Assembly (NCBI RefSeq): GCF_001677475.2
Contig: NZ_CP012497.1
Length of the DNA: 64,000 nucleotides
DNA from: Escherichia coli
Lineage (GTDB): Bacteria > Pseudomonadota > Gammaproteobacteria > Enterobacterales > Enterobacteriaceae
Direction: 5' to 3' (one strand)
Below, one piece after another: positions 7,296 through 60,973 of the stretch. The translations under genes and the position numbers were made by a program. Under the pieces are notes generated by a model. That model saw only the letters and a list, made by a program, of their open reading frames with translations, was not told where the DNA came from and made no database searches. Every line of letters starts with the position of its first letter. The stretch's first letter is position 1.

Positions 7296-7651
7296 TGGCC
7301 AACAATAACGAAATTGATCCTTTACTGACGCTGGAGTTATCCGGCGTAAAAACGTATGAGTCCCAGGAGGAGGCCTGGGGCGCTCGTTTATATGAGTGGC
7401 TAAACACTTATCAGGGTGAGGTATACGGAGATCCGTCATGGGGCAATGTTTTACCGCAGTTTAAACACGAACCGACCAACTTGTCGTATGTTCAAATTGC
7501 GGTTGAGGCAATGCTTTTGCAAAAACTGACGGTAGATTTACCCGACATACCGATTTCTGGCTTGTCAGTAGCCGAGGGAGATGCTTTTGATAAGTTGAAA
7601 ATATCCATTCGTATCAGGGATATAACTATCACACAGGACGTGGTGCTATGA
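7292..7651 (+). CDS. Small baseplate-associated protein (pmgA position)
   Basis: 119 aa, overlaps the sit stop by 4 bp (translational coupling). Confidence 0.4.
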   Translation: MMANNNEIDPLLTLELSGVKTYESQEEAWGARLYEWLNTYQGEVYGDPSWGNVLPQFKHEPTNLSYVQIAVEAMLLQKLTVDLPDIPISGLSVAEGDAFDKLKISIRIRDITITQDVVL

Positions 7652-9081
7652 GTAAAACAACACCGACTAAAGACAGTATTCGTGCAGAGTTTGAAGAGCT
7701 TGTCGAGAAAGATTCATTCTGGTCGAAGTTTGTCGGCTCTCAATTTGTCTCGATGCTGACATTGTTTATTACCCAGATTGTATACAGGTGTTTTCAATAT
7801 GCCGATGCTGCGCTGGCTGAAGGCTTTATATCGACTGCGACGCGGCGTTCCTCTATCCTGGCTGCGGCAGAAACGAACAGTTATGTTGGTACCAAGCCAA
7901 CACCGTCATCGGGGATGATTGAGATCACAGCCACAAGTGAAGATGCTCCAGCGGTAATCCCCAAAAACATGCCTTTAATATCTGACGACCAGTACCCTTA
8001 CATGACTATGGATGTATGCAGATTGGTTGACGGCACCGGTACGGTAGAAGTGGCACAGTTGGAAATCCAGGAGGTGACATATACCGTTACGGCAGCCAAA
8101 GAATTTCTGGAAGTCGTGTTATCAAAGGCTCTCACTGCTGTCTGCTATAAGCTGGAAGTATTCGTGACGACCGATGGTAAGACCACGCAGTGGTCTTCCA
8201 GCACTATGTTCCGGTTAGCCGGTAGTAAAAGCCAGGTCTACGTTGAGTTTTATAAACCATCCGAGCAGTTGGGGGTTCGATTCGGCGATGGGCTAATTGG
8301 GCAAATACCGCCAGAAGGCTCGACAATTACGCTTAAGGTATGGTGCACCAACGGCGATATAACCCTGGTTGCTGGCCAAAACCTGACGCCTGTCGATTCT
8401 GCGGCTAATTTAGCTAATTTGATTTCAGTTAAGACAACGACACCTATAACCGCAGGTACCGATGCTGAAACAACGGAGATCACACGTAACCGTGCACAAT
8501 ATTACCTTGCCTATGATGATCAGGTCGTATGGGGCGGGGACTATACGTATTTTCTGGTGCGTAACATCCCGGGACTGTCCTGGGTAAAGGCATGGGGCGA
8601 AGGCCAGCAAGAGAAATTAGATGGTGCTTATAATATTCGGAATATCAATAGGATATTTATTTCAGGATGGCATCCAAACAAAAGCCAGTCAGAGCTTGAA
8701 GAAATGATCCTGGCTGCCTTTAAGAAGGTGCCGAATGAGTTGAACAAGAAATTCTCGTATAAAGAGGTCAGAAAACTACCCTTTAAGATCACCATCACCG
8801 GGCGGATATCGGCAAGCCTGACCATTGAGAACGTGACCGATGAGCTGAAGTCGGCACTGGAAACAAAATTTGGGCGTGACTCAACTTTCTTTGATCCGAA
8901 CCGTGTCGGCAAGTACATCCTGATTAAGAAAAAAGACGTTTGGGCATTTATCGAAACGCTGGGTTATTTCCGCGACTTTTATCTGGAATTTGTCGAGTGG
9001 AATGAGTCCAACGGCTTTTACGATTTCGTTTATCTGGATACAGAAAACTCCACCTTTAATATTTCGTATGAGGAGGAGTGA
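7648..9081 (+). CDS. Baseplate protein (BplA-like)
   Basis: 477 aa, coupled to flanking genes; position matches P1 bplA. Confidence 0.5.
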   Translation: MSKTTPTKDSIRAEFEELVEKDSFWSKFVGSQFVSMLTLFITQIVYRCFQYADAALAEGFISTATRRSSILAAAETNSYVGTKPTPSSGMIEITATSEDAPAVIPKNMPLISDDQYPYMTMDVCRLVDGTGTVEVAQLEIQEVTYTVTAAKEFLEVVLSKALTAVCYKLEVFVTTDGKTTQWSSSTMFRLAGSKSQVYVEFYKPSEQLGVRFGDGLIGQIPPEGSTITLKVWCTNGDITLVAGQNLTPVDSAANLANLISVKTTTPITAGTDAETTEITRNRAQYYLAYDDQVVWGGDYTYFLVRNIPGLSWVKAWGEGQQEKLDGAYNIRNINRIFISGWHPNKSQSELEEMILAAFKKVPNELNKKFSYKEVRKLPFKITITGRISASLTIENVTDELKSALETKFGRDSTFFDPNRVGKYILIKKKDVWAFIETLGYFRDFYLEFVEWNESNGFYDFVYLDTENSTFNISYEEE

Positions 9082-20780: not shown

Positions 20781-22997
20781 ATGAGCTTAAGCGATCAGGT
20801 GGTAATTGCCACCAGCATAGAAACGCTGATCGAGCTGCTTAAGAACCTGCCCGATTATGGGCGGGTTTCGTATGTGGTGACAGCGAAGGGAGACGAGGTA
20901 AAAACAGCGTTTGATATCGTCGATGCCTCAGCTCTTTTGGTATCCAATACTCTGGATGGGAAAATTAATCCTGACTATCCCCAGGAACTTCAGCCGCGCG
21001 ACCGGACCCGCGCATCCAGCCTTCTTCAGGTTAACCAGATATCCAAAGATTTGCGGCCTGCTCAGCTTACCGATTCCGGTTTATCCAGCCATGGCGCGCC
21101 GATAATTGGTGAGGACAATGCCGTTGAGTCAGGTAATGGACGGACCATGGGAATCATTAAAGCCTATCAGGACGGCAATGCGGATCGGTATCGTGAGTAC
21201 CTGATTGAACATGCGACCGAATTCGGCATACGACCTGAAAAGGTTGAATCAATGACGGCTCCTGTATTGGTGCGCCGCCGGTTAACTAAGGTTGACCGCG
21301 TTCAGTTTGCCAAGGACTCAAATATTTCTGATCTTCAGGAAATGGCAGCCAGTGAAAAGGCTTTTGTTGATGCCGACAGCATAACACCGGCGATGATGGC
21401 GCTGTTTAATCCGTCAGAAAGCGGAGATCTGCTTAGCCGCAGTAATGACGCGTTTATTCGCGGATTCATGACGCAAGTTGGTGCCACACAGGCTGCTGGC
21501 CTTGTAACGGAAGATGGGCGACCAACGCGGCAACTTGTTGACCGTATACAAAACGCGATCTTTGCCAAGGCATATAAGGATGCGCGCCTGGTAAGGATGG
21601 TTGCAGAAGAACCTGATCCGGATATGCGTAATGTTCTGACGGCGCTTAATGCGGCAGCCAATGATTTTGTCCAGATGCAGGCTTTATCAGGAGAAGCGCA
21701 CAAGCAGGCTGTGACAACTATTGTTGATGGCATTGAGACAGCGGATAGCCTCGATAAAAAGGCGCTGGCGGCATTGAAAGATGCGGTAGACCTGGTAAGG
21801 CAATCGAAGGAGTCAGGCCAGCATATTACCGATGTTATTGCTCAGGGGGATATGTTCAGCGAAACGGCCCCGGAAGTGAAAGCACTCGCGTTGTTCATCG
21901 TCGCGAATAACCGTAGCGCGAAGCGTATGGCCACCGCCTTTAAGTTGATGGCTCAACGTATCAATGATGAGTTACAGCACCAGGGCCAGGCGCTGGGGGA
22001 TATGTTTGGCGGCGGCGATGTGTCGTTACAGGATATCCTTCGCCAGGTGTCTCAGGAACTGGAAAACGAAGGCATGCAAGGGATATCCGGCGGTCTTTTC
22101 GAGTCCGTTTCCGGCGGTAGTTACAACGGTGTTGCTCCATATACCAGCTTGCTATTACATCGGGCATCCGGCATCAAAGACATTATTCATCTGATCAGGC
22201 TGCTTTCCCGTACAGATCCCCAGGATGAACAGCTTGTACAAGTGCTTGCGCATTTTGTTCGAATGCCTGTTGCCGACGTGAATAAATGGTGCCGATTATT
22301 CGGTATCAGCAATTCGTTACTTCGCGGATTGTTAAATCACGCATCCTCCCTTGGGCGCGACGGCTTTGATGAGATAGCGCAGGCGATACAAAACGGAGAT
22401 ATGCCACCAGCTATTGACTGGTTTTCCATTCGCCCAACCAGGGTGAAAGCATTCCTTAGCGCGGCGCATTCGGCATCACCATTGGCAGAAATGGTTCAGA
22501 GGTTGTCGCTCATATTCACAGACCATACCGCGTTGGGTGATCTGACTCTGGACGAGATGAAAGAAGCCTCCATTCAGTGGGCCGATCAACAAAATGAGGT
22601 TAACTCAGACTTCTTGCCAGCATTCAGGAAGGCCGTTAGTAAAGCGGATGATTCCCGTGGAATTCTGAAGGCATTTAAGGCATTGCAAAGTCGGGTTAAT
22701 AAACATGTCGGTGATATCGATGGGGTAACGGCGGAAGGCAGGGATATTCTTAAAGAGCACGGCATAACGCCAGAGTTTATTGATGAGATCAGGACGGATA
22801 TGCAGCGTGAGGTCGTATCGTCCCTGCAAATTGTAGCCAGAGCGTTGGCGGATGCTAATCCGAAGAGTGCGGCCATTGTTAACCGGGTTATTGGTGATAT
22901 TGAAGCATCGGAGGGCATGGGGGCGCTGAAACTCTTCCTTTCGCGAGCGTTTAATCCTAACGGCAATATTCTCCCTGGCATTATTGGTGAGGTATGA
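20781..22997 (+). pseudogene. ddrB: ddrB-like gene, 5' part, interrupted by IS insertion
   Basis: 738 codons ending ...ILPGIIGEV followed by a stop inside the IS; the reading frame resumes exactly after the IS. Confidence 0.55.
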
Positions 22998-23085
22998 GAC
23001 GACAATAACTCAGTCCGCCTGGCGCCGATTATTCTGGCCGGTTTTGTAACCTGAGTGTCATTTACATGATCCAACAGGAAATGGC

Positions 23086-24585
23086 GTGACGCTCAATACT
23101 TCTCAGGTCAGTTACTATATGACTCAGCGTAAGAAAGGTATAACTCAGCATATCTCGGCCATGAAGGCTGGTATCTCAGTCCGTTCTGGTCGTCGGATCG
23201 AAAAAGGAGAGTGGGCAAAAAACAGTGTTCGGCACTGGCGCACACGCAAAGATCCTCTGGAAGCTGTGTGGGACAGCATGCTTGTTCCTCTGTTGAAAGA
23301 GAGGCCGGCTCTGACACCAACAACTCTACTGGAGATGCTACAGGATAAATATCCCGGCCAGTACCCCAACAGCCTTCGAAGAACAATGCAACGGCGGGTT
23401 CGCGAATGGAAACTACAGTATGGTACAGAGCAGGAGGTCATGTTCCGCCAGCAACATCAGCCCGGCCTGCGAGGCCTGTCGGACTTTACTGAACTGAAAG
23501 GTGTAGTTGTCACCATCGCCGGTAAGTTGTTGGCGCATAAGTTGTATCACTTCCGTCTGGAATGGAGCCACTGGAGCTGGATGCGGGTTGTTCTGGGTGG
23601 TGAGAGCTTCTCTGCTCTGGCTGAAGGCCTGCAGGAAGCCCTCGGACAACTGGGCGGAGTGCCGGTAGAACATAAAACGGACAGCCTGAGGGCAGCATGG
23701 AAACAACAGGGCGAAGATGGACGCCGCGAGCTGACTGAGCGTTATGCTACTCTCTGTCAGCACTACGGAATGCAGGGCGTACACAATAATGCCGGTCGGG
23801 GCCACGAAAATGGCTCGGTTGAAAGTGCCCACGGACATCTGAAAAGGCGTATCTGTCAGGCGCTGATACTGCGGGGCAGTAACGACTTCAGCACCATAGA
23901 AGAATATCAGGCCTTCATCACTCAGCAGGTTATGCGGCACAACCGTAACAATCAGGATCTGGTCAAGGAAGAACGTCTTCATCTGAAACCGCTGCCGCTT
24001 CGTCGCAGTGCTGACTATGATGAGCTGACTGTGAGGGTTAGTCGCAGCAGTACCATCAATGTGAAGCACGTCGTCTACAGCGTACCTTCCCGGCTTGTAG
24101 GTCAACTGTTACGGGTCAGGTTATGGGACGATCGTCTGAGCTGTTACGTTGGCAGCAGCGAGGTCATGAGCTGCCCTCGCGTCAGACCAGAAAAAGGGAA
24201 GACGCGGGCCCGTCGTATCGACTTCCGACATGTGATCGACAGTCTGGCAAAAAAGCCCGGTGCGTTCTGCCATGCAACGCTGAGAAATGACATCCTGCCG
24301 GACGATGAATGGCGGAGGCTGTGGCGTCGCTTATGTAATCATCTGGAGCCCGATATGGCAGGAAGGCTGATGGTACATGCCCTGAAACTGGCTGCAGGAT
24401 ACGACGATATCTCAGTCGTGGCAAAAGGTATGGAGCAGATGCTGAATACCCCGGGAAACGTGGATCTGCACCGGCTGATGCGCTTCCTGGGTATAAAAGA
24501 AAAGGCGTTGCCGGTAGTCAATGTGATACAGCATAACCTGAGCAGTTATGAGCAACTACTGCGTGGCAAGGGAGGTTCGCAGTGA
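23086..24585 (+). CDS. istA: IS21-family transposase IstA
   Basis: 499 aa; N-terminal HTH and integrase-core-like region; followed by overlapping istB. Confidence 0.85.
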   Translation: MTLNTSQVSYYMTQRKKGITQHISAMKAGISVRSGRRIEKGEWAKNSVRHWRTRKDPLEAVWDSMLVPLLKERPALTPTTLLEMLQDKYPGQYPNSLRRTMQRRVREWKLQYGTEQEVMFRQQHQPGLRGLSDFTELKGVVVTIAGKLLAHKLYHFRLEWSHWSWMRVVLGGESFSALAEGLQEALGQLGGVPVEHKTDSLRAAWKQQGEDGRRELTERYATLCQHYGMQGVHNNAGRGHENGSVESAHGHLKRRICQALILRGSNDFSTIEEYQAFITQQVMRHNRNNQDLVKEERLHLKPLPLRRSADYDELTVRVSRSSTINVKHVVYSVPSRLVGQLLRVRLWDDRLSCYVGSSEVMSCPRVRPEKGKTRARRIDFRHVIDSLAKKPGAFCHATLRNDILPDDEWRRLWRRLCNHLEPDMAGRLMVHALKLAAGYDDISVVAKGMEQMLNTPGNVDLHRLMRFLGIKEKALPVVNVIQHNLSSYEQLLRGKGGSQ

Positions 24586-25337
24586 GCAATATCCATCACC
24601 TTGAACATAGCCTGCGTAAACTACGCCTGACACGAGTTGGAGCTGAATGGCACGCTCTGGAAAAACGAGCGCTGGCAGAAGGCTGGACACCATCGCGCTA
24701 TCTTCTGACGCTATGCAATGAAGAACTCCTGTGGCGCGAGAGTGAAAAACTGCGTCGTTATAAAAAGGAGGCCCGGTTGCCAGTTGCCAAAACGCTGAGC
24801 GAATACGACTTCAGTCAGGTGCCGGAACTGAATGGAGCTCAGTTCCGGCAACTCTGTGAAACGACAGACTGGGTTGATGCAGGAGAAAACGTTCTGCTGT
24901 TCGGAGCCAGCGGGTTGGGGAAAAGCCATCTGGCGGCAGCGATCGTGGATGGCGTAGTAGGTCAGGGCTACCGGGCCCGGTTCTACAGCGCAGGAGAGCT
25001 GTTGCAGGAACTACGTAAAGCCAGAGCTCAGTTGAAACTGAATGAGCTGCTACTGAAACTGGATCGCTACCGGGTGATAGTGGTGGATGATCTTGGCTAT
25101 GTCAAACGCGATAGTGCCGAAACGGGTGTGCTGTTCGAGTTAATAGCGCATCGCTATGAACGTGGGAGCCTGGTGATAACCAGTAACCATCCGTTCAGCA
25201 TGTGGGGCAGCATCTTCGTGGATGAGACTATGGCGGTGGCTGCGGCAGACAGGCTGATCCATCACGGATATATGTTCGAACTGAAAGGGGAAAGCTACAG
25301 GAAAAAGACAGCGAAGGCAGTAACAAGCGCGACTTGA
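24582..25337 (+). CDS. istB: IS21-family ATP-binding helper IstB
   Basis: 251 aa; Walker A GASGLGKSHLAAA and Walker B VIVVDDLGY. Confidence 0.85.
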   Translation: MSNIHHLEHSLRKLRLTRVGAEWHALEKRALAEGWTPSRYLLTLCNEELLWRESEKLRRYKKEARLPVAKTLSEYDFSQVPELNGAQFRQLCETTDWVDAGENVLLFGASGLGKSHLAAAIVDGVVGQGYRARFYSAGELLQELRKARAQLKLNELLLKLDRYRVIVVDDLGYVKRDSAETGVLFELIAHRYERGSLVITSNHPFSMWGSIFVDETMAVAAADRLIHHGYMFELKGESYRKKTAKAVTSAT

Positions 25338-25389
25338 TGTCGCCCTGAAGGGTGCGGCCAGTATAGTTGGCGCGAGTCGGCAAAACTAG

Positions 25390-26184
25390 TTGACGTCTAA
25401 TAGTGAGGCTAAAAAGTATGTCAGTGAAGAAGAACTTGAGCAGCTTGACCAACTACTTAAGCGATTCTCATATAACCCGCAGACACGCTGGCAAATGAAT
25501 CAGCGAAGTATGGGTTCGGTCCACGAGAAAGTGTTATCTGCCATGAACAGTGCGATCGCAAACTCATCCGTATCTGAAGAAAAAGCTCTTGAGTGGGCCG
25601 ACTCTTTTATCACAGAAGAAGTGGAAGAAGCCCGCGCTGGACAGAATGGTGGGATAGACCTGCGCAAGGAACTTGCTGATATTTATCGCCTGACCGGCGG
25701 GAAAATATCGACCTTATCAAAGGTAGTTCACCACCAGGGAAGGGCATATGCAAATCTAAATGGTGTTGTTGCTGTCAATTTGAACGATGAAAATGCAAGT
25801 GCACTGTGGCACGAGCTGGGTCATCATCTTGAGTACAGTAACCCTGGTTTGTTAGAGAAAGCCCGGTCATTCCTGAAGGCCAATGTTGAAGGGGATAAGC
25901 CATCTTTCGTCAATATCGGTGGGCGTGGCAAGCCTGAATGGTGCTTCAGATCTCGATTGAGTAATATTTATATGGCGAAGGTATACCCGCCAGCCTCAGT
26001 AAGTAACACCGGGAAAATTCGGCAGAAATCACCGACTATTTCCAAAACGTCAGCAACGGAAGTATTCTCTATGGCTCTTCAGTTGTATCATGACAAAGAG
26101 GCCGCTGCCGCATCACTGATGAATGGTGACGGATTGCTGGAACTGTTATTAGGTGTGGCAAAGGAGCTAAATAATGCAGATTAA
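25390..26184 (+). pseudogene. ddrB: ddrB-like gene, 3' part
   Basis: Frame continues from the upstream part once the IS and one copy of GTGAGG are removed (...GIIGE|AKKYVSEEELEQ...). Confidence 0.5.
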
Positions 26185-26482
26185 AATCGCAGCGCCATTA
26201 GGTGGAGATGCCATTATCGAATTTGATGATAATGAAGAAGTTTCCGGGCGTTTAAGCATTATCTCCGGTGACATTACCGAGGACATGATCGCTGAAGCCA
26301 TAGCTGGAGCAAATCCCAATAGCTATATGGGATTCGTTAACACCCTTGATGCTCCCGCAAGTGATGTTCTCCGAACGCTGCATCTTTACGCTGGCTGGTT
26401 TGTTGATTGGCCAGCAGTAGATGGTGGCGATGAGGACGACGACGATGATTTTGGTGATCATGTAGACCAGATCGTATATTGA
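26174..26482 (+). CDS. Small acidic protein
   Basis: 102 aa with a Asp/Glu-rich C-terminus (DGGDEDDDDDFGD); last gene of the plus-strand operon. Confidence 0.35.
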   Translation: MQIKIAAPLGGDAIIEFDDNEEVSGRLSIISGDITEDMIAEAIAGANPNSYMGFVNTLDAPASDVLRTLHLYAGWFVDWPAVDGGDEDDDDDFGDHVDQIVY

Positions 26483-26484
26483 AG

Positions 26485-26510
26485 AAATCCCGCCAATCGG
26501 CGGGATTTTT
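26485..26510. terminator. Rho-independent terminator (bidirectional position)
   Basis: AAATCCCGCC-AATC-GGCGGGATTTTT hairpin with T-run between convergent genes. Confidence 0.5.
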
Positions 26511-26513
26511 ACC

Positions 26514-27608
26514 TCACGAGAAGCTTTTTTCTGATGTCAGCCAACAGTGCTCGTGCAAATCTCTTGGTGGTTTTTCGACAAACGCCTCTTCAGCCACATC
26601 CTGCCAGGGGATTTGTTTAGCCCATTCAGTTATAGCGTTATGGTTTGCCGAGAATAACGGTATTGTATAGGCCTTCAGCCAGTCTAATGTGCTGGAGTTG
26701 TGTTTTTGAGCGTGATGTTTCGCATGGTGTTTGGCGATCACGATCGTAGGCACTACCCATTTACTACCGTCAGTCATTGTGAAGTGCATATTACGGGGAA
26801 CAGATGACTTTTCCATCAACTCCCGAATCCCGGGGAATTTCCCCAAGATCAATCGGCGATATTCATCGCTATTGCGTCCACCAAACTCTTTGGCTTTGAA
26901 TTCAAGATATGCTTCAGAAACGAGAGGTGAATCCTCTGTGTTTAGAGTTATCGCCGTGAAAAAACCAGCAGGATTGTTTTTACTATGGGCCAACCGGTGA
27001 TGCGAATCATAAAAGTACCCTTTCTCGCGTTCCGATGGTTTCGACAGCAACAGCAGGCGCGAGTCATAATTGGTTAAATTGCCAGTTATCACTGCATGAG
27101 CGCGATCGCTGATTTCCGCCGAGTTAATAACGATGAAAAGATCGTGCGGTCCAGTAAAACCAGCCAGAGACTCTTCGTTATTCAGACAATAGGTTATATA
27201 GACGCATCCCCATGTTTCACTGATATGCACCAACCCTTTGTCAGGGTGTATTCTGAAATAATTGCCAAGAAAAGGGTGTTTTTGGGTAACTCGCTCCCAA
27301 TAACGGAACATATAGTCAATTATTGTTTTTCGACTATCGTTAATCGCAGGAGAAACAACCACTGTACGGGAACACGAATACAGTATTGTTTGCAGGATGC
27401 TAATCACTGCCACAATAGAGGTTTCCCCAATACCATGTGGTGTGGTGGCAGTGACTTTGGCTCCGGTGTTCTTTATCGCGTTAATAATTTTTGCTTGATG
27501 AGGTGTTAACTCAATATCAAGCAACTCTTTTGCTGCCAGTTCCCAATTGTCTTTATACCGTTCTATCAGTGCTAACCAGGCAGATTCATTCTGTATACGA
27601 TTAATCAC
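26514..27608 (-). CDS. Terminase-large-subunit (PacB) ATPase-domain paralogue with degenerate Walker A/B; no nuclease domain
   Basis: 364 aa; alignable with the PacB N-terminal 250 aa in this window (e.g. GYFYDSHHRLA...FTAITLNTEDSPLV vs [11 protein letters not shown]...[14 protein letters not shown]); Walker A HGIGETS vs PacB HGTGKSD; Walker B VINSAE vs IIDEAS. Confidence 0.6.
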   Translation of the reverse strand: MINRIQNESAWLALIERYKDNWELAAKELLDIELTPHQAKIINAIKNTGAKVTATTPHGIGETSIVAVISILQTILYSCSRTVVVSPAINDSRKTIIDYMFRYWERVTQKHPFLGNYFRIHPDKGLVHISETWGCVYITYCLNNEESLAGFTGPHDLFIVINSAEISDRAHAVITGNLTNYDSRLLLLSKPSEREKGYFYDSHHRLAHSKNNPAGFFTAITLNTEDSPLVSEAYLEFKAKEFGGRNSDEYRRLILGKFPGIRELMEKSSVPRNMHFTMTDGSKWVVPTIVIAKHHAKHHAQKHNSSTLDWLKAYTIPLFSANHNAITEWAKQIPWQDVAEEAFVEKPPRDLHEHCWLTSEKSFS

Positions 27609-28383
27609 TTTCCACCTCTTCCGTGGTGTTTTCTTGCAGTTCTGTTAATGCAGCACGACATAGGTTCCGGGCATTGGCTATAGCCACACTTTTGACTTCA
27701 TCCGTCATCGTGCAGGTAATGTACTGATCGAGTTCTTCAGCGCGGATGATGCTTTTGCCAATCAGAAACTGTATTTGCCATAGCAGATCGGCATCCATAA
27801 TCAGAATTTCTGCCGGGCCTTCAGGGCCAGCCGGGAAGGAAACATAAGACTGTTTGCCCAGGCCGACAACTCGACAACTTGCTTCAAGAATTGCGCGCTT
27901 GAGGTCTGACTTTATAACGGAAACAGGTTGATTTTCACCAGTGATTACGCCGTTGACATGGAAAGGCATGTAGCTTGAAATACGCTCCACTTTCCACACG
28001 CCAGCAAGCGATCCTTCATGCAGCACAATGGGGGTAACCGCGAGTTTCATCTCACCATATAACTGCTGGCAGATAGCTGGATTGCTGAATACATCTAAAG
28101 GCTCACATTCAAACAGCGGCGCAATCTGCATGAGGTCCATCATGGTCATCCCTGGGGTACGAGCAGTAATGAATCTGCGCATACCAGTATCCATTGCGCT
28201 CCAGATTGCTACACCATGCTTTTTGCTCACTTCTTCAGTAAAGCCAAGGTGGCACATGATGGTTTTTTCGATAGCCAGATCAGAGATCGAAACCTTTTCG
28301 CCAGGCACACCATCATTATTGATGGTCACTTCGACACTCTGACCATTACGCAGGCGGTATTGAATTGCTTTAGTATTTTCCAC
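27601..28383 (-). CDS. Hypothetical protein (middle gene of ssb-linked operon)
   Basis: 260 aa; 8-bp overlap with the downstream gene, 6-bp gap from the upstream gene. Confidence 0.45.
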   Translation of the reverse strand: MENTKAIQYRLRNGQSVEVTINNDGVPGEKVSISDLAIEKTIMCHLGFTEEVSKKHGVAIWSAMDTGMRRFITARTPGMTMMDLMQIAPLFECEPLDVFSNPAICQQLYGEMKLAVTPIVLHEGSLAGVWKVERISSYMPFHVNGVITGENQPVSVIKSDLKRAILEASCRVVGLGKQSYVSFPAGPEGPAEILIMDADLLWQIQFLIGKSIIRAEELDQYITCTMTDEVKSVAIANARNLCRAALTELQENTTEEVESD

Positions 28384-28389
28384 GTTAAA

Positions 28390-29118
28390 TCACTCCACTA
28401 CAAACCAGTCACATGCCAGTAAATCATCCACAGACGGCAACCAAACGCTGTCCATATTTTGTGCATCTTTCAATACAAAATGGTCACCATAAGGAACGTG
28501 AATGCCGTGTAAATTGACGCTTCCAGCGAGAACTAACCAGCAGAATTGCTTTTCGCCTTTCCACTCGCGTCGGGCAACTTTCTTGCCTTCCTTCAACCAC
28601 ATTAGCGCGTCAGAGAAGTCGGCTGCTTCAAGGTCGATTTCTTCTTGTGTGGTAATGATGCCACCGGCAGCAATAGTTACGTCCCTGGCTGTAATGAATG
28701 TCACCCCATTGTGACCTTCAATGCTAAGCGATACCTCATTTTCGAAGAAGTCGTTAGTCCGACTAAAGCCTTCTTCAAATGTTTTTTCTGGTGAATAGGA
28801 CAGATAACCGTCCTCATAACCGAGCAGATAGCCGCCAGTATCTGGTCGGTGTTTTTGCAAAAACGCTGCATCAACACGAACCGTTACGCCTTGGGGGTCC
28901 ATTAATGTGATATAGCCACAAGCAGGGGTATTATCAATCAATGAGATAATCTCGATATCTTTGATTTTCGATGCACTAACGATTTTGTGAGCTTTGTATT
29001 TGGGAAGGAACTTAAAAAGCTCTTTCGTTGCCATTTTATTCATAGTCTTTTCTCTGCTTAAAATTTGATGTATTGCGCCTTCAGGTGGGGAGGAATGTTT
29101 TCCCACCAGCGAAAGCAA
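28390..29118 (-). CDS. Hypothetical protein with C-terminal DUF2829-like (Tad2-like) motif
   Basis: C-terminus [25 protein letters not shown]...[18 protein letters not shown] resembles the DUF2829 signature as I recall it; true start probably an internal Met (MNKMATKEL) near 29040. Confidence 0.4.
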
Positions 29119-29713
29119 TGCCTCGGGGTGTTCTTTTCGTGAAAAGCGCGTGCCATTGCCAGCTTTGGCGTTTTTTAGCGAGTTCGTGCTTTTGTCGGCG
29201 TCTGGACCACCGCTTTTCTTTCAGTCGTTTTTGAATATCGTCGTCAAAGTCCATTGGAGGTTCGTTATTGGCGTTGCTCTGAGGTTTACCGCCACCACTG
29301 TATTGCTGGTGGTTTTGAGGTTGGTTTGATTGCCCCCAGCCATTTGAGGACTGTGAATCGTCACGGCGAGCGCCGATCATTTGCATGGTGCCGCCCTGGC
29401 TGACGATAATTTCCGTCGTGTAACGTTCTACACCGGCGTCATCTGTCCACTTACGGGTTTTAAGTTTCCCTTCGATGTAGACCTGAGAACCTTTTCGTAA
29501 ATACTCACTCGCAATTTCAGCAAGTTTTCCGAACAAAACGACTTTATGCCATTCTGTTTGCTCTTTCTGTTGGTCCGTTTGCTTGTCGCGCCATGATTCA
29601 TTCGTTGCGATGCTGAGTCTTCCGACCGCGCCGCCATTTGGTATATACCTGATCTCCGGGTCTTGCCCCAGGGTACCAATCAGGATGACTTTGTTTACAC
29701 CGCGTTGTGCCAC
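29081..29713 (-). CDS. ssb: Single-stranded DNA-binding protein; annotated ORF has an unusual C-terminal extension
   Basis: OB-fold N-terminus [23 protein letters not shown]..., Gly/Gln-rich linker, acidic tip PPMDFDDDI at residues 152-160; the canonical IPF ending is absent and the frame runs 50 more codons. Confidence 0.8.
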
Positions 29714-29732
29714 TTATCTTACCTAATAAAAT

Positions 29733-29749
29733 AAATTAATTAGAGCAAT
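29733..29749. promoter_or_regulatory. C1 operator-like site upstream of ssb
   Basis: Reverse complement ATTGCTCTAATTAATTT vs P1 C1 operator consensus ATTGCTCTAATAAATTT. Confidence 0.5.
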
Positions 29750-29882
29750 AATGTATATCTTTGAAACGTAGCTAACAAGTGATTTGCATTATCCTGTACC
29801 TTCTAAAGGGATCGAGTCAGTCGGTATTGGCTGTGAATGGGTGTTTGTCCTGGAGCGTAAAAAATTCGCTTATGAGGTCTTT

Positions 29883-30440
29883 ATGAAGGGAAAAACAGCC
29901 GCAGGAGGCGGTGCAATTTGCGCTATCGCGGTGATGATTACCATCGTGATGGGTAATGGCAATGTGCGAACCAACCAGGCGGGGCTTGAGCTTATCGGAA
30001 ACGCTGAAGGTTGCCGACGTGATCCATACATGTGCCCGGCGGGGGTATGGACTGACGGGATCGGTAATACACACGGGGTAACGCCGGGTGTGCGAAAAAC
30101 AGACCAGCAAATCGCCGCTGATTGGGAAAAGAATATCCTGATCGCTGAACGCTGTATTAATCAGCACTTCCGGGGCAAAGACATGCCCGATAATGCCTTC
30201 AGTGCAATGACAAGCGCGGCATTCAATATGGGATGCAATAGCTTACGGACCTACTACAGCAAAGCGCGAGGCATGCGAGTTGAAACGTCCATCCACAAGT
30301 GGGCGCAGAAAGGGGAATGGGTGAATATGTGTAACCATCTCCCTGATTTCGTGAACAGTAACGGCGTGCCCCTGCGAGGTTTAAAGATTCGCCGTGAAAA
30401 AGAACGCCAGCTTTGCCTGACGGGACTGGTCAATGAATAA
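29883..30440 (+). CDS. lyz: SAR endolysin Lyz (T4-lysozyme family)
   Basis: 185 aa from internal Met MKGKTAAGGGAICAIAVMITIVMGNGN (SAR-type N-terminal membrane segment); the ORF-track start at 29784 is an upstream extension. Confidence 0.85.
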   Translation: MKGKTAAGGGAICAIAVMITIVMGNGNVRTNQAGLELIGNAEGCRRDPYMCPAGVWTDGIGNTHGVTPGVRKTDQQIAADWEKNILIAERCINQHFRGKDMPDNAFSAMTSAAFNMGCNSLRTYYSKARGMRVETSIHKWAQKGEWVNMCNHLPDFVNSNGVPLRGLKIRREKERQLCLTGLVNE

Positions 30441-30687
30441 ACTCCGGCAGCTCCGCCGACTTTCGACAATGAAGTTATCGCTGGCGGCGATAGTTTTTGA
30501 CTCGATTTTCATGGCGGTATATGTGCTCAATGAGACGTGGCCACTGGAACCGCTATTGTATGCCGGGCTTCGGCTGTGCCTGACATTTTTGAGCATGGCT
30601 GCGAGATTGATGCAGCAGAAAGAAACTGCTTCAGATTGTCCACGCCGCGCGGTGCGCAAATATATGGCACGCAGGCGAAGGAGATAA
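30433..30687 (+). CDS. Small membrane protein downstream of lyz
   Basis: 84 aa, two hydrophobic segments, Arg-rich C-terminus; overlaps the lyz stop; followed by a terminator. Confidence 0.3.
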   Translation: MNKLRQLRRLSTMKLSLAAIVFDSIFMAVYVLNETWPLEPLLYAGLRLCLTFLSMAARLMQQKETASDCPRRAVRKYMARRRRR

Positions 30688-46820: not shown

Positions 46821-46849
46821 GCTCAATTATAGCAATCAATTAGAGCAAT
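46821..46849. promoter_or_regulatory. Tandem overlapping C1 operator-like sites upstream of ref
   Basis: Reverse complements ATTGCTCTAATTGATT and ATTGCTATAATTGAGC. Confidence 0.5.
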
Positions 46850-49231: not shown

Positions 49232-49276
49232 TAGGTCTGAAGAGGAGTTTACGTCCAGCTGCGCATAAAAAACAAG

Positions 49277-49291
49277 AATTATTAGAGCAAT
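49277..49291. promoter_or_regulatory. C1 operator (minus orientation)
   Basis: Reverse complement ATTGCTCTAATAATT. Confidence 0.55.
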
Positions 49292-49357: not shown

Positions 49358-49373
49358 ATTGCTCTAATAAATT
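49358..49373. promoter_or_regulatory. C1 operator (plus orientation), upstream of coi-c1
   Basis: ATTGCTCTAATAAATT, near-exact consensus. Confidence 0.6.
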
Positions 49374-49612
49374 ATAGTTTTGCCACCGTTTCGTAATACG
49401 ACTTTGGATTCACTATTTAATGTGTCTTCAGCGTTGTAGAGCGGCTCAGAAGGAAATGAGCAAACAGGGAAACCTTATACAACGGCATTACAGCTATGCA
49501 TTGCTCATCTTACACACAGCGCAATGTTGATAGATAACCCCAGCATGGAACATGGGTGAAACAGTAGGTCAGAGCTTCAGGCTCTGTGTTGTCAATACAG
49601 TGAGGCATAATT

Positions 49613-52468: not shown

Positions 52469-52469
52469 C

Positions 52470-52486
52470 AATTTATTAGAGCAAAT
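52470..52486. promoter_or_regulatory. C1 operator variant upstream of the icd-ant region
   Basis: Reverse complement ATTTGCTCTAATAAATT. Confidence 0.45.
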
Positions 52487-52488
52487 AT

Positions 52489-53973
52489 TCATTCATTAAG
52501 CCATGCCAGAGCTTCATCAACCTGCGCTTCGTCTTCGACGCTAAGCACTTCATCCTGGGGAACATAATCCGCCAGCATAGCGAAACAATATGTATCCCAA
52601 TGGTCTGGTGAGTGCAGGTTGAGTTTTTTCTTCATATCCTCCTTACTCATCACCTTCCATTGACCTGCGGAGTTAATCCCTACAGGGATTTTCGACGCTT
52701 CCTCAATAGTTTCATTACCCTTATCCAGTCTCATACGACCAGATTTTACGGCCTCTGCGGCTTGAACGTTGGCATAAGCACGTTTATCAAAGTACAGGCT
52801 CTTATCTTCACGGCTATGCATCTTTTTACCCCAGCGTATACGCTGTACGGTAATACCATAATACTCGTACATCAGATCCGCCGTTGCTTTACCCAGGCCA
52901 TCGCCGTCTATCGCTATGGTGATATTGGGGAATCGCTCAGGATTACATTCTGCGAAAATTTTGGCAGCAAGCTGCGTTTCTGTAACGTCTGTGTATTCCA
53001 GCATTCGATAGTTGATTACACGGCGTTTATTTCGCTGGCCGGACACCATCATGATATTGATAACGGACTTATCCCGTCCCGTACCACCAGCAACGTCCAC
53101 ACATGCAAGCCAGCCCCATCCTTTGGCAATCTTGACTTTCCGCCGCGTTGCACGTTCAACCTCATCACGTCCAAGAAGGAAGCCATCCTGTGATTTAGGG
53201 AATAGGCCGCGTACCTTAATCATGTACATAGGGTTATCACGCCCGCCGTACTCCGCCAGCTTCATTTTGATAAATGCTGGCGTTACCAGCGGTGATTCCT
53301 CACTGTTAAGCGTGATCGCCGTATAAACGCCATCAGGGTTACCAGGACGCTTGGCCAGTTTATGGTGAGTATCGTAGAAATAGCCGCTTGGGCGTGTAGG
53401 CTGTGACAGCAATAAGATGCGGTTATCCTGTCCGGTAAGAGCACCGGTGATGATACCGAAAGCTCTATCACTGACACCGGAGGCTTCATCGATAATATAC
53501 AGAAGATGGTCTGCGTGTTCACCAGCGAGAGCTTCTTCACTTCCCAGACGAAAGCCCTTCGGTACTACAGTCCATACACCTTTACCAGTAACCTCATAGA
53601 AAGCGGTTTCTGTCAGAACAAAATAATCAGCAAGCCATGGAAAACGGCTGGTGGCCGTAGCCCAGTTTATCTTGATGTACTTGAATATACCGGTCATTAC
53701 CTGCTGAATTTTGTTCGCAACGATAATGGCGCGGGCACCGGGATACATGATTATGAACAACATGATCATGATAGAAGTCATGTCTGATTTCCCGGTACCG
53801 TGACCAGACGAAACAGATGTCTTGCTACCCTGTTCCTGCACAGACTCAATAATCAGATCCTGCTGCCAGGTAGGTGTTTTGCCGAACAAAACATCTGCCG
53901 CCGCAATCCAGTCATAACGATATAGCGCCACCAGCTCGCGCCAACGCGGATCCGTTACGCAACTTCTGGCCAT
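52489..53973 (-). CDS. pacB: Terminase large subunit PacB
   Basis: 494 aa; Walker A HGTGKSD, Walker B IIDEAS, C-terminal nuclease-like domain. Confidence 0.9.
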
Positions 53974-60874: not shown

Positions 60875-60958
60875 ATTTTCAGCTCCTGTGATTGATTGGA
60901 TACATGCCGCGCCTTGCGGCATGTTTTTATTTTCACTTTCTCTGTTTTAAAAATCAAC

Positions 60959-60973
60959 ATTTATTAGAGCAAT
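60959..60973. promoter_or_regulatory. C1 operator
   Basis: Reverse complement ATTGCTCTAATAAAT, exact consensus core. Confidence 0.55.

Follow-up and report, generated by a model that had tools for sequence, protein, structure and literature searches.

The window analysed here is a stretch of 64,000 nucleotides from Escherichia coli (contig NZ_CP012497.1 of assembly GCF_001677475.2), which belongs to a P1-like phage-plasmid and which carries, on the minus strand behind the ssb gene, three tightly packed genes that are termed g1, g2, and g3 in the following. The last of these, g3, almost certainly encodes a functional, non-catalytic paralogue of the ATPase domain of PacB, the large terminase subunit (TerL) of this type of element. 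Going by its sequence, the protein should be incapable of canonical ATP binding or hydrolysis and of DNA cleavage. Since the features of the ATP site and of the nuclease are missing, g3 would have to act by binding, and thus it probably works by binding a partner and not by packaging DNA.

BLASTP analysis of g3 against the PacB protein of the window yielded 94 identities over 266 positions (35%, E 8e-55) across g3 residues 11–272, which bears out the alignment to the PacB ATPase domain proposed in a preliminary description of the locus that had been made from the sequence alone. Beyond residue ~272 the same comparison gave zero similarity to PacB, whereby PacB residues 275–494 stay unaligned. 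The Walker A motif reads HGIGETS in g3 and HGTGKSD in PacB, and the exchange of Lys for Glu is seen in the alignment just as it had been described. For the Walker B motif, BLAST and MAFFT agree in placing D162-E163 of PacB opposite I161-N162 of g3; the preliminary description had also reported that this motif is lost, and this part stands, as there is no acidic residue in either register, whereas the residue pair that it had named (NS) was off by one. Altogether, g3 has neither a Walker A motif of the type G-x-x-x-x-G-K-[ST], nor a Walker B motif (hhhhDE), nor an RNase H-like nuclease domain. The structural comparison suggested in the preliminary description also pointed to a terminase. The AlphaFold2 (AF2) model of g3, which was based on a 43-sequence alignment, reached a predicted local distance difference test score (pLDDT) of 86.5, with values >90 over residues 10–260, and a predicted template modelling score (pTM) of 0.80. 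In a Foldseek search, its best PDB matches were the ATPase domains of Sf6 gp2, P74-26, T4 gp17, and D6E TerL (E down to 1.5e-10), the match list also holds the Avs3-bound PhiV-1 terminase (8dgc), and the top BFVD matches were all terminases. The additional strand catalytic glutamate (ASCE) ATPase fold of the TerL N-terminal domain is thus present in g3. Searches of Pfam, PDB sequences, NCBIfam, and PADLOC gave no match for g2 and g3. What g3 shares with PacB are the QQ motif, the P-loop G-x-G, and the LAG, P-x-x-x-x-G-x-F, SP, and G-x-F motifs, whereas the Walker A Lys, the Walker B Asp-Glu, the His that corresponds to PacB H153, and the nuclease domain are lacking. Moreover, g3 differs from PacB in being accessory instead of essential and in bearing an unrelated C-terminal domain. 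In public records the g3 family is found as phrog_5902 of “unknown function”, as “hypothetical protein”, or as “terminase large subunit”, and the latter label, which occurs in some phage records, is a mislabel.

In order to judge how far this loss of catalytic residues extends, relatives of g3 were collected by an exhaustive search over 1.84 billion representatives, which yielded 746 sequences; the family required such a search, as a word-indexed protein search had yielded only three relatives. The motif census was carried out with those aligned relatives that reach 225 aa or more (139 sequences, window g3 and PacB included). Canonical GK[ST] and DE motifs were present in 119 of these, and both motifs were missing in 13, among them g3 and its own cluster representative. 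Column counts were then compared between 27 canonical relatives and the 13 members of the pseudo clade. The Walker A Lys, the catalytic Glu of Walker B, and the His of the LAGxH motif were each found in 27/27 canonical relatives vs. 0/13 pseudo-clade members, and the Walker B Asp in 25/27 vs. 2/13. The scaffold positions Q38, G59, G61, G150, P191, G197, F199, H204, S227, P228, Y250, G256, and F258 are kept. In a neighbour-joining tree (midpoint root, no bootstrap support), 12 of the 13 motif-less representatives formed one clade. The pairwise ratio of non-synonymous to synonymous substitution rates (dN/dS) of g3 was 0.14–0.27 within the P1 lineage and 0.31–0.44 among D6-like copies. Because dN/dS is low and the motif-less sequences form one clade, g3 is a maintained pseudo-enzyme and not a decaying copy. 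The 90%-identity cluster of g3 comprises 851 member sequences with the same motifs, and tblastn detected g3 (at least 80% identity) in about 119 of the 767 plasmids with a PacB-like gene. A sequencing error as the source of the motif loss is ruled out by these two sets; the preliminary description had named intact GKS/DE motifs upon resequencing as an outcome that would speak against it, and the degenerate motifs shared by the 851 cluster members show that the loss is genuine.

Every long context contig of the clade members turned out to be a P1-like element, as recognised by a C1_P7 repressor, Cre-like recombinase, ParM, Ref, Hot, or HumD, and the remaining contigs were too short to judge. 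In one of the distant lineages (L008, positions 7336–8792, Logan SRR34349115), the pseudo-TerL gene (P0013) overlaps a gene for a Ref-like RecA-dependent nuclease by 4 bp. For the most distant lineages, an IsaA-like neighbour was sought around P0014 and P0010, and none was found; L008 was the only one with a distant homologue of IsaA. P0030, P0037, and other representatives of 650–860 aa are canonical PacB-type terminases with intein-like insertions, which sit directly after the G-H-G of Walker A and are visible in the alignment as a long insertion at this site.

The C-terminal part of g3 (residues ~270–364) is a separate domain with AF2 pLDDT values of 58–77 and matches the C-terminal ~90 positions of phrog_17928. 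A profile search with the tail alignment led to 1671 clusters at E <= 0.001, nearly all of them standalone proteins of ~100 aa from temperate phages, and no Pfam domain is associated with them. As stated in the preliminary description, the nuclease domain has thus been replaced by an unrelated tail, which here proves to be a separate, independently occurring family. In Cronobacter phage JK004, a protein of 98 aa consists of the tail alone and is encoded two genes behind that of a DnaB-like helicase (L022, 5001–5297). In Xanthomonas CP2-like phages, the tail forms the C-terminal end of a protein of 471 aa that belongs to the recombination module (L023, 1894–3309), and in lambdoid prophages tail-family proteins are encoded between the replication genes and ninB. 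In P0025 the tail domain is located N-terminally to another dead pseudo-TerL. The tail family thus comprises widespread early accessory proteins of temperate phages. Most members of the pseudo-TerL clade have 252–268 aa and no tail, and one bears a different extension. Because most clade members lack the tail, the inert ATPase domain is the core of the family, whereas the appendages vary. A natural loss of the tail end was observed in Escherichia albertii plasmid pEA36_1 (L021, 728–2961), where an IS911 insertion cuts g3 after codon 331.

The middle gene, g2, is the orthologue of P1 isaA. Its product has 247 of 261 residues (95%) in common with P1 IsaA (gp017, residues 60–320), and both genes are syntenic between ssb and hxr. 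The preliminary description had left open whether the genes correspond to isaA and isaB of P1, and its suggestion to compare them by BLAST could thus be answered for isaA, whereas g3 proved to be unrelated to isaB. P1 IsaB (gp020) gave a best BLASTP match to g3 of only E 0.056 over 57 residues and belongs to a different PHROG family (phrog_30162), for which reason neither g3 nor its tail is considered homologous to IsaB. At the DNA level, P1 shares the regions 25403–26480 (3′ end of ddrB and hxr), 27600–28379 (isaA), and 29040–30500 (ssb to lyz) with the window, carries the insertion sequence IS1 together with isaB in place of g3, and has no g1. The P1 genes resemble the window locus in isaA and in the ssb–hxr interval, and differ from it in isaB. 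The g2 product is 47–50% identical to IsaA of D6-like elements, and IsaA dN/dS values of 0.10–0.23 reveal a strong purifying selection. A distant IsaA homologue (hhalign probability 98%) is encoded in the third P1-like lineage (L008), 3 kb upstream of and not adjacent to the pseudo-TerL gene. The AF2 model of IsaA was poor (pLDDT 55.7 on a shallow 12-sequence alignment), and a Foldseek search of it against PDB gave nothing below E 0.3. It was also considered that IsaA might be a PacA paralogue, so that isaA-g3 would be a duplicated pacAB pair; this was rejected, as there is no BLASTP similarity and both proteins belong to different PHROG families. The ssb, isaA, and isaB genes of P1 are non-essential by CRISPR interference (PMC10695390).

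The first gene, g1, had been described as DUF2829-like on account of a C-terminal motif, and this assignment was substantiated by a match of residues 142–217 to the Pfam family Tad2-like PF11195 (E 7.6e-18) as well as by matches to the solved structures of ModTad2 (9eib, E 8e-11), Tad2 (8v3e, E 1e-10), and SPO1 Gp34.65 (8sme, E 5e-6). Tad2 proteins (SPO1 Gp34.65, MoTad2/ModTad2) are sponges for signals of Thoeris, Pycsar, and cyclic oligonucleotide-based anti-phage signalling (CBASS) systems, whose nucleotide signals they sequester as homotetramers, and g1 matches them over its C-terminal 76 residues; the DUF2829 family also includes AcrIIA7. Whereas Tad2 has ~90 aa, g1 has 217 aa with an N-terminal extension of ~135 aa, which shows no Pfam match and matches only PHROG families of unknown function. 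Part of this N-terminal region is deleted in D6 and L018. The ligand contacts of SPO1 Tad2 are W25, N26, I63, T65, D67, H71, W73, S76, T78, and D79 (Yirmiya et al.). In the alignment to the solved structures, g1 keeps W25, W73, S76, and D79, carries Leu at I63, and shows the pocket changes N26 to K, T65 to D, D67 to Q, H71 to S, and T78 to D. By analogy, g1 is likely a sponge for an immune signal; since five pocket positions are changed and Tad2 proteins bind very different signals, its ligand cannot be predicted. Compared to a plasmid with flanks of 99.6–99.7% identity, g1 is only 75% identical (28390–29043 vs. 4491–5165 of L002). From this low identity between near-identical flanks, g1 appears to be exchanged separately, and the pattern points to frequent cassette exchange or to diversifying change in this gene. 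Its dN/dS is 0.28–0.54, and across P1 and D6 lineages g1 sequences are 65–85% identical and thus more alike than core genes are.

With regard to the arrangement of the three genes, the open reading frames (ORFs) and their spacing were found as previously described, and the coordinates were right except for the upstream end. The g1 stop codon (28390–28392) is separated from the g2 start (28383) by a gap of 6 bp, the g2 stop codon (27601–27603) and the GTG start of g3 (27608) give an overlap of 8 bp, and a GGAG/GAGG Shine-Dalgarno sequence precedes both the g2 and the g3 start. The start of g1 had been set to 29118, which yields a TTG-initiated ORF of 242 codons; this is an ORF-extension artefact. 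Because related records use the conserved ATG at 29043, this codon is most likely the true start, which gives a protein of 217 aa, and it lines up with the isaA start region of elements without g1. Between ssb and g1 there is a conserved and apparently non-coding spacer of ~190–200 nt, which in P1 is annotated as an N-terminal extension of IsaA and in which this frame is broken in the window. The annotated P1 IsaA of 320 aa begins within the spacer, immediately behind the ssb stop codon (NC_005856, 5081–5258), and the extension frame is interrupted in both the window and MH422554. For this reason, the annotated start is probably wrong, and the true start of P1 IsaA would be the conserved internal ATG (264 aa). 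This suggests that the ssb-isaA spacer is non-coding, though strongly conserved. An Rfam scan of 26000–30000, spacer included, gave zero matches.

The interval between ssb and hxr is a published hot spot of P1-like plasmids, RD-2 (PMC6906374), and next to the locus is the antirestriction operon Dar (hxr-ddrB-ddrA-darA). Instead of the single three-gene unit assumed in the preliminary description, four configurations were observed in P1-type elements, namely g1+isaA+g3 (window, CP058750), isaA+g3 (MH422554), g1+isaA (SJ46, CP088789), and isaA+IS1+isaB (P1), and tblastn detected IsaA in 473 plasmids vs. about 119 for g3. The hot spot thus holds an accessory cluster of mosaic make-up with isaA at its centre. 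Wherever g3 was present in the P1-type and D6-type elements examined, it lay directly behind isaA, its start codon overlapping the end of isaA, so that the lack of conserved partners, which would have argued against a functional unit, is not what was found: two lineages have isaA as a conserved partner upstream of g3. The linkage to ssb holds for the P1-type elements and does not extend to D6-like plasmids, where the module adjoins dut at a different genome position; the order in three such elements is cre-x-x-dut-g1-isaA-g3, followed by humD or phd/doc. Identities between D6-like elements and the window are 61% for g1, 47–50% for IsaA, and 49–52% for g3, compared to 57% for PacB. Because the divergence of the isaA-g3 pair is similar to that of PacB, the pair seems to date back to about the time when the P1 and D6 lineages separated. 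The window PacB is 99.8–100% identical to that of SJ46, RCS47, and vB_EcoM-673R5, and it shares 88.7% identity with P1 PacB. The g3 gene is absent from P1 and also from SJ46, though the latter carries the PacB allele of the window, and g3 copies of 98.6% identity are found with PacB alleles that differ by 11%.

Upstream of ssb, the operator for the repressor C1 that the preliminary description had placed there is present, with 17 of 17 positions (ATTGCTCTAATTAATTT, 29733–29749, minus strand) identical to P1 Ossb/Op21, and ~110 nt around it show 98% identity to the annotated P1 operator/promoter region (P2ssb). No terminator-like site was predicted on the coding strand from ssb to the end of g3, the minus strand of the ssb-g1 spacer contains neither a terminator-like nor a promoter-like site, and the sole promoter-like site on the coding strand is a weak one inside g1. 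Thus, an early C1-controlled co-transcription of g1–g3 with ssb is plausible.

As to what g3 binds, we tentatively favour a role in counter-defence by mimicry, although we consider this somewhat less than an even prospect. It is favoured because the gene is part of an accessory hot spot next to the Dar operon, in part with a Tad2-type neighbour, and is fused to an early accessory domain, because its distribution is patchy and independent of PacB alleles, and because Avs and Upx sensors read the TerL ATPase domain. For EcAvs2, the ATPase domain of TerL is a sufficient trigger, and this sensor makes contact with the ATP bound to the terminase; SeAvs3 recognises ATP together with residues of the active site, and the target bound by Upx is the core of the ATPase. 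According to this proposal, the C1-repressed ssb promoters would drive transcription of the cluster soon after induction or infection, and g1, like other Tad2 proteins, would trap a nucleotide that serves as an immune signal. g3 would be translationally coupled to IsaA, probably acting together with it, and would act by binding alone, imitating the terminase ATPase domain in structure. In this way it might occupy those host sensors that recognise this domain (Avs1-3 or Upx type), and its lack of the ATP and active-site features that the sensors read would blunt the detection of the real PacB. A wider version, in which the g3 clade as a whole represents early-infection ATPase-domain mimics that saturate or mis-assemble Avs1-3 and Upx, with IsaA and the tail as co-factors, seems doubtful to us.

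The nearest described proteins to g3 are T4 vs.8 and Ksap1/2, TerL-ATPase-like accessory proteins that bind the same pocket and for which an anti-defence function is one possibility raised by the authors (bioRxiv 10.64898/2026.04.30.721860). Like g3, they are non-essential, accessory, restricted to one phage group, and similar to the TerL ATPase domain. They are set apart from g3 by their descriptions: vs.8 keeps Walker A and B and derives from a T4-type terminase, whereas g3 derives from PacB, has lost the catalytic residues, and bears an extra domain; Ksap1 (74 aa) and Ksap2 are small and alike at most in fold. No description of a PacB paralogue, terminase pseudo-enzyme, or terminase decoy of this family was found in the literature that was searchable here.

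Several points weigh against counter-defence by mimicry. vs.8 and Ksap1/2 activate Avs2 and do not inhibit it (bioRxiv 10.64898/2026.04.30.721860), and it may be that a mimic without an ATP site is not bound at all by sensors that read ATP. The link of g3 to such sensors is a proposal from sequence and analogy, and we likewise infer the co-transcription with ssb from the sequence. The g1 and g3 genes occur independently of each other, so that the guilt-by-association with Tad2 is weak, and none of the three proteins has a PADLOC or NCBIfam match. In the more distant P1-like lineages the pseudo-TerL gene has other neighbours (Ref-like nuclease, radical SAM protein, unknowns), and in other phages the tail is located beside replication genes.

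It could also be that g3 serves in packaging interference or control, as a dominant-negative subunit that binds PacA, PacB, or the portal and that either poisons the terminase of co-resident or superinfecting P1-like elements or times the element's own pac cleavage. We regard this as unlikely, though worth serious consideration. g3 derives from PacB-type terminases, keeps their N-terminal ~50 residues and the scaffold motifs, and its family is confined to elements that use PacAB. Satellites redirect or block the packaging of their helpers via small-terminase mimics or binders, as in the case of Ppi from Staphylococcus aureus pathogenicity islands (SaPIs) and Rpp from phage-inducible chromosomal islands (PICIs), and ring ATPases are sensitive to inactive subunits; both count in favour of such a role. 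Ppi and Rpp are, like g3, non-catalytic and act on the terminase by binding, but it is the small subunit that they target or imitate, and their genes lie on satellites, whereas g3 is a phage-encoded paralogue of the large subunit. However, g3 does not co-vary with the terminase, as evident from the near-identical copies beside divergent PacB alleles and from its absence in SJ46, and an obvious target would be the element's own PacB, with the risk of self-poisoning. Moreover, C1 control would silence g3 in the lysogen, where exclusion would matter, and IsaA has no similarity to PacA.

A function as an accessory of DNA replication, recombination, or repair, in which an inert, TerL-like scaffold that binds DNA would be anchored to replication intermediates or to SSB by the tail and perhaps by IsaA, appears improbable to us. 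The position of the cluster behind ssb in P1-type and dut in D6-type elements would fit it, as would the family member that overlaps the Ref-like nuclease gene, the tail genes after DnaB-like helicase genes in JK004 and lambdoid prophages, and the tail fusion to a protein of the recombinase/exonuclease/SSB module in Xanthomonas CP2-like phages. However, nin-type regions near replication genes typically hold miscellaneous accessory genes, most family members have no tail, and no DNA-binding or replisome motif was detected in the Pfam and PDB sequence searches. Even less probable is a prophage defence or exclusion function, for which an unrecognised promoter would have to drive g3 expression in the lysogen, so that the protein could trap terminase partners of incoming phages. 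Hot spots of P1-like plasmids often hold defence genes (PMC6906374, PMC13221032), which would suit the accessory and patchy distribution of g3, whereas g3 shows no PADLOC match and no effector-like domain, the single promoter-like site on the coding strand is weak, and its neighbour g1 belongs to a family of anti-defence and not of defence proteins. Finally, g3 could be a decaying remnant of a pacB duplication, as the loss of the catalytic motifs and the nuclease domain might suggest. As far as sequence evidence goes, this is effectively excluded by the selection and conservation data: the ORF of 364 codons is intact in every full-length copy examined, with the one cut copy being due to IS911, dN/dS is 0.14–0.27, the scaffold residues are conserved down to ~30% identity among family representatives, and g3 (~50%) has diverged between P1 and D6 lineages to a similar degree as PacB (57%), which is essential.

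If the wider version of the mimicry proposal, with saturated or mis-assembled sensors, holds true, g3 would be the first anti-Avs or anti-Upx protein that mimics the sensed viral protein. The large terminase is the viral protein that is most widely sensed by the bacterial immunity related to nucleotide-binding leucine-rich repeat (NLR) proteins, and several phage groups carry extra TerL-ATPase look-alikes (T4 vs.8, Ksap1/2). Among these, the P1-like clade is the clearest case of a pseudo-enzyme, with lost catalysis, purifying selection, the partner IsaA, and sometimes a Tad2-type neighbour. As the hosts (E. coli) and P1 are genetically tractable, it becomes directly testable whether such look-alikes are decoys, triggers, or packaging regulators. 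In addition, two annotations can be corrected, which are the “terminase large subunit” label of g3 and the start of P1 IsaA. The features of the locus are compiled in Table 1.

Table 1. Coordinates of the ssb–g3 locus and of pacB in the window.
Feature	Position	Strand	Basis
C1 operator Ossb (Op21), overlapping the ssb promoters	29733..29749	(-)	exact match ATTGCTCTAATTAATTT
ssb, with private 15-bp deletion at 29232/29233	29081..29713	(-)	
Conserved ssb-g1 spacer	29044..29232	(-)	alignment
g1, 217 aa; N-terminal domain phrog_11049 and C-terminal Tad2-like/DUF2829 domain	28390..29043	(-)	
g1 Tad2-like (PF11195) domain, residues ~142–217	28393..28620	(-)	Pfam and PDB matches
g2, IsaA orthologue, 260 aa, phrog_2326	27601..28383	(-)	
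g3, 364 aa; dead PacB (TerL) ATPase-domain paralogue with ~95-aa tail	26514..27608	(-)	
g3 TerL-ATPase-like domain, residues 1–262	26823..27608	(-)	BLASTP, AF2, Foldseek
g3 degenerate Walker A, residues 56–63 TPHGIGET; Lys position is Glu62	27420..27443	(-)	
g3 degenerate Walker B, residues 157–163 LFIVINS	27120..27140	(-)	
g3 tail domain, residues ~270–364	26517..26801	(-)	phrog_17928 positions 407–489
pacB, functional large terminase of this element; parent type of g3	52489..53973	(-)	

The ssb gene of the window carries a deletion of 15 bp at the junction 29232/29233, where relatives have CGTTTTGAATGTGTA. The deletion takes the last two codons, which encode Pro-Phe of the conserved acidic tip DDDIPF, as well as the stop codon, and the ORF thereby runs for 48 further codons that add unrelated residues. 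It was found in 0 of 402 plasmid records that match this stretch. The C-terminal tip of SSB is the docking site for partner proteins. This could mean that the window encodes a defective SSB, or else that the deletion arose as an error in the assembly.

On the other side of the locus, an element of the IS21 family interrupts the antirestriction gene ddrB within 20781–26184 of the window. The element carries istA (23086–24585) and istB (24582–25337) and divides ddrB into a 5′ part of 738 codons (20781–22997) and a 3′ part of 264 codons (25390–26184), the latter of which corresponds to positions 736–995 of phrog_2299. Apart from Ossb, five further C1-operator-like sites with 1–2 mismatches to the consensus were detected in the window, at 46833–46849, 49275–49291, 49358–49374, 52469–52485, and 60957–60973, at a chance expectation of 0.03 matches, and one of them is located immediately downstream of pacB.

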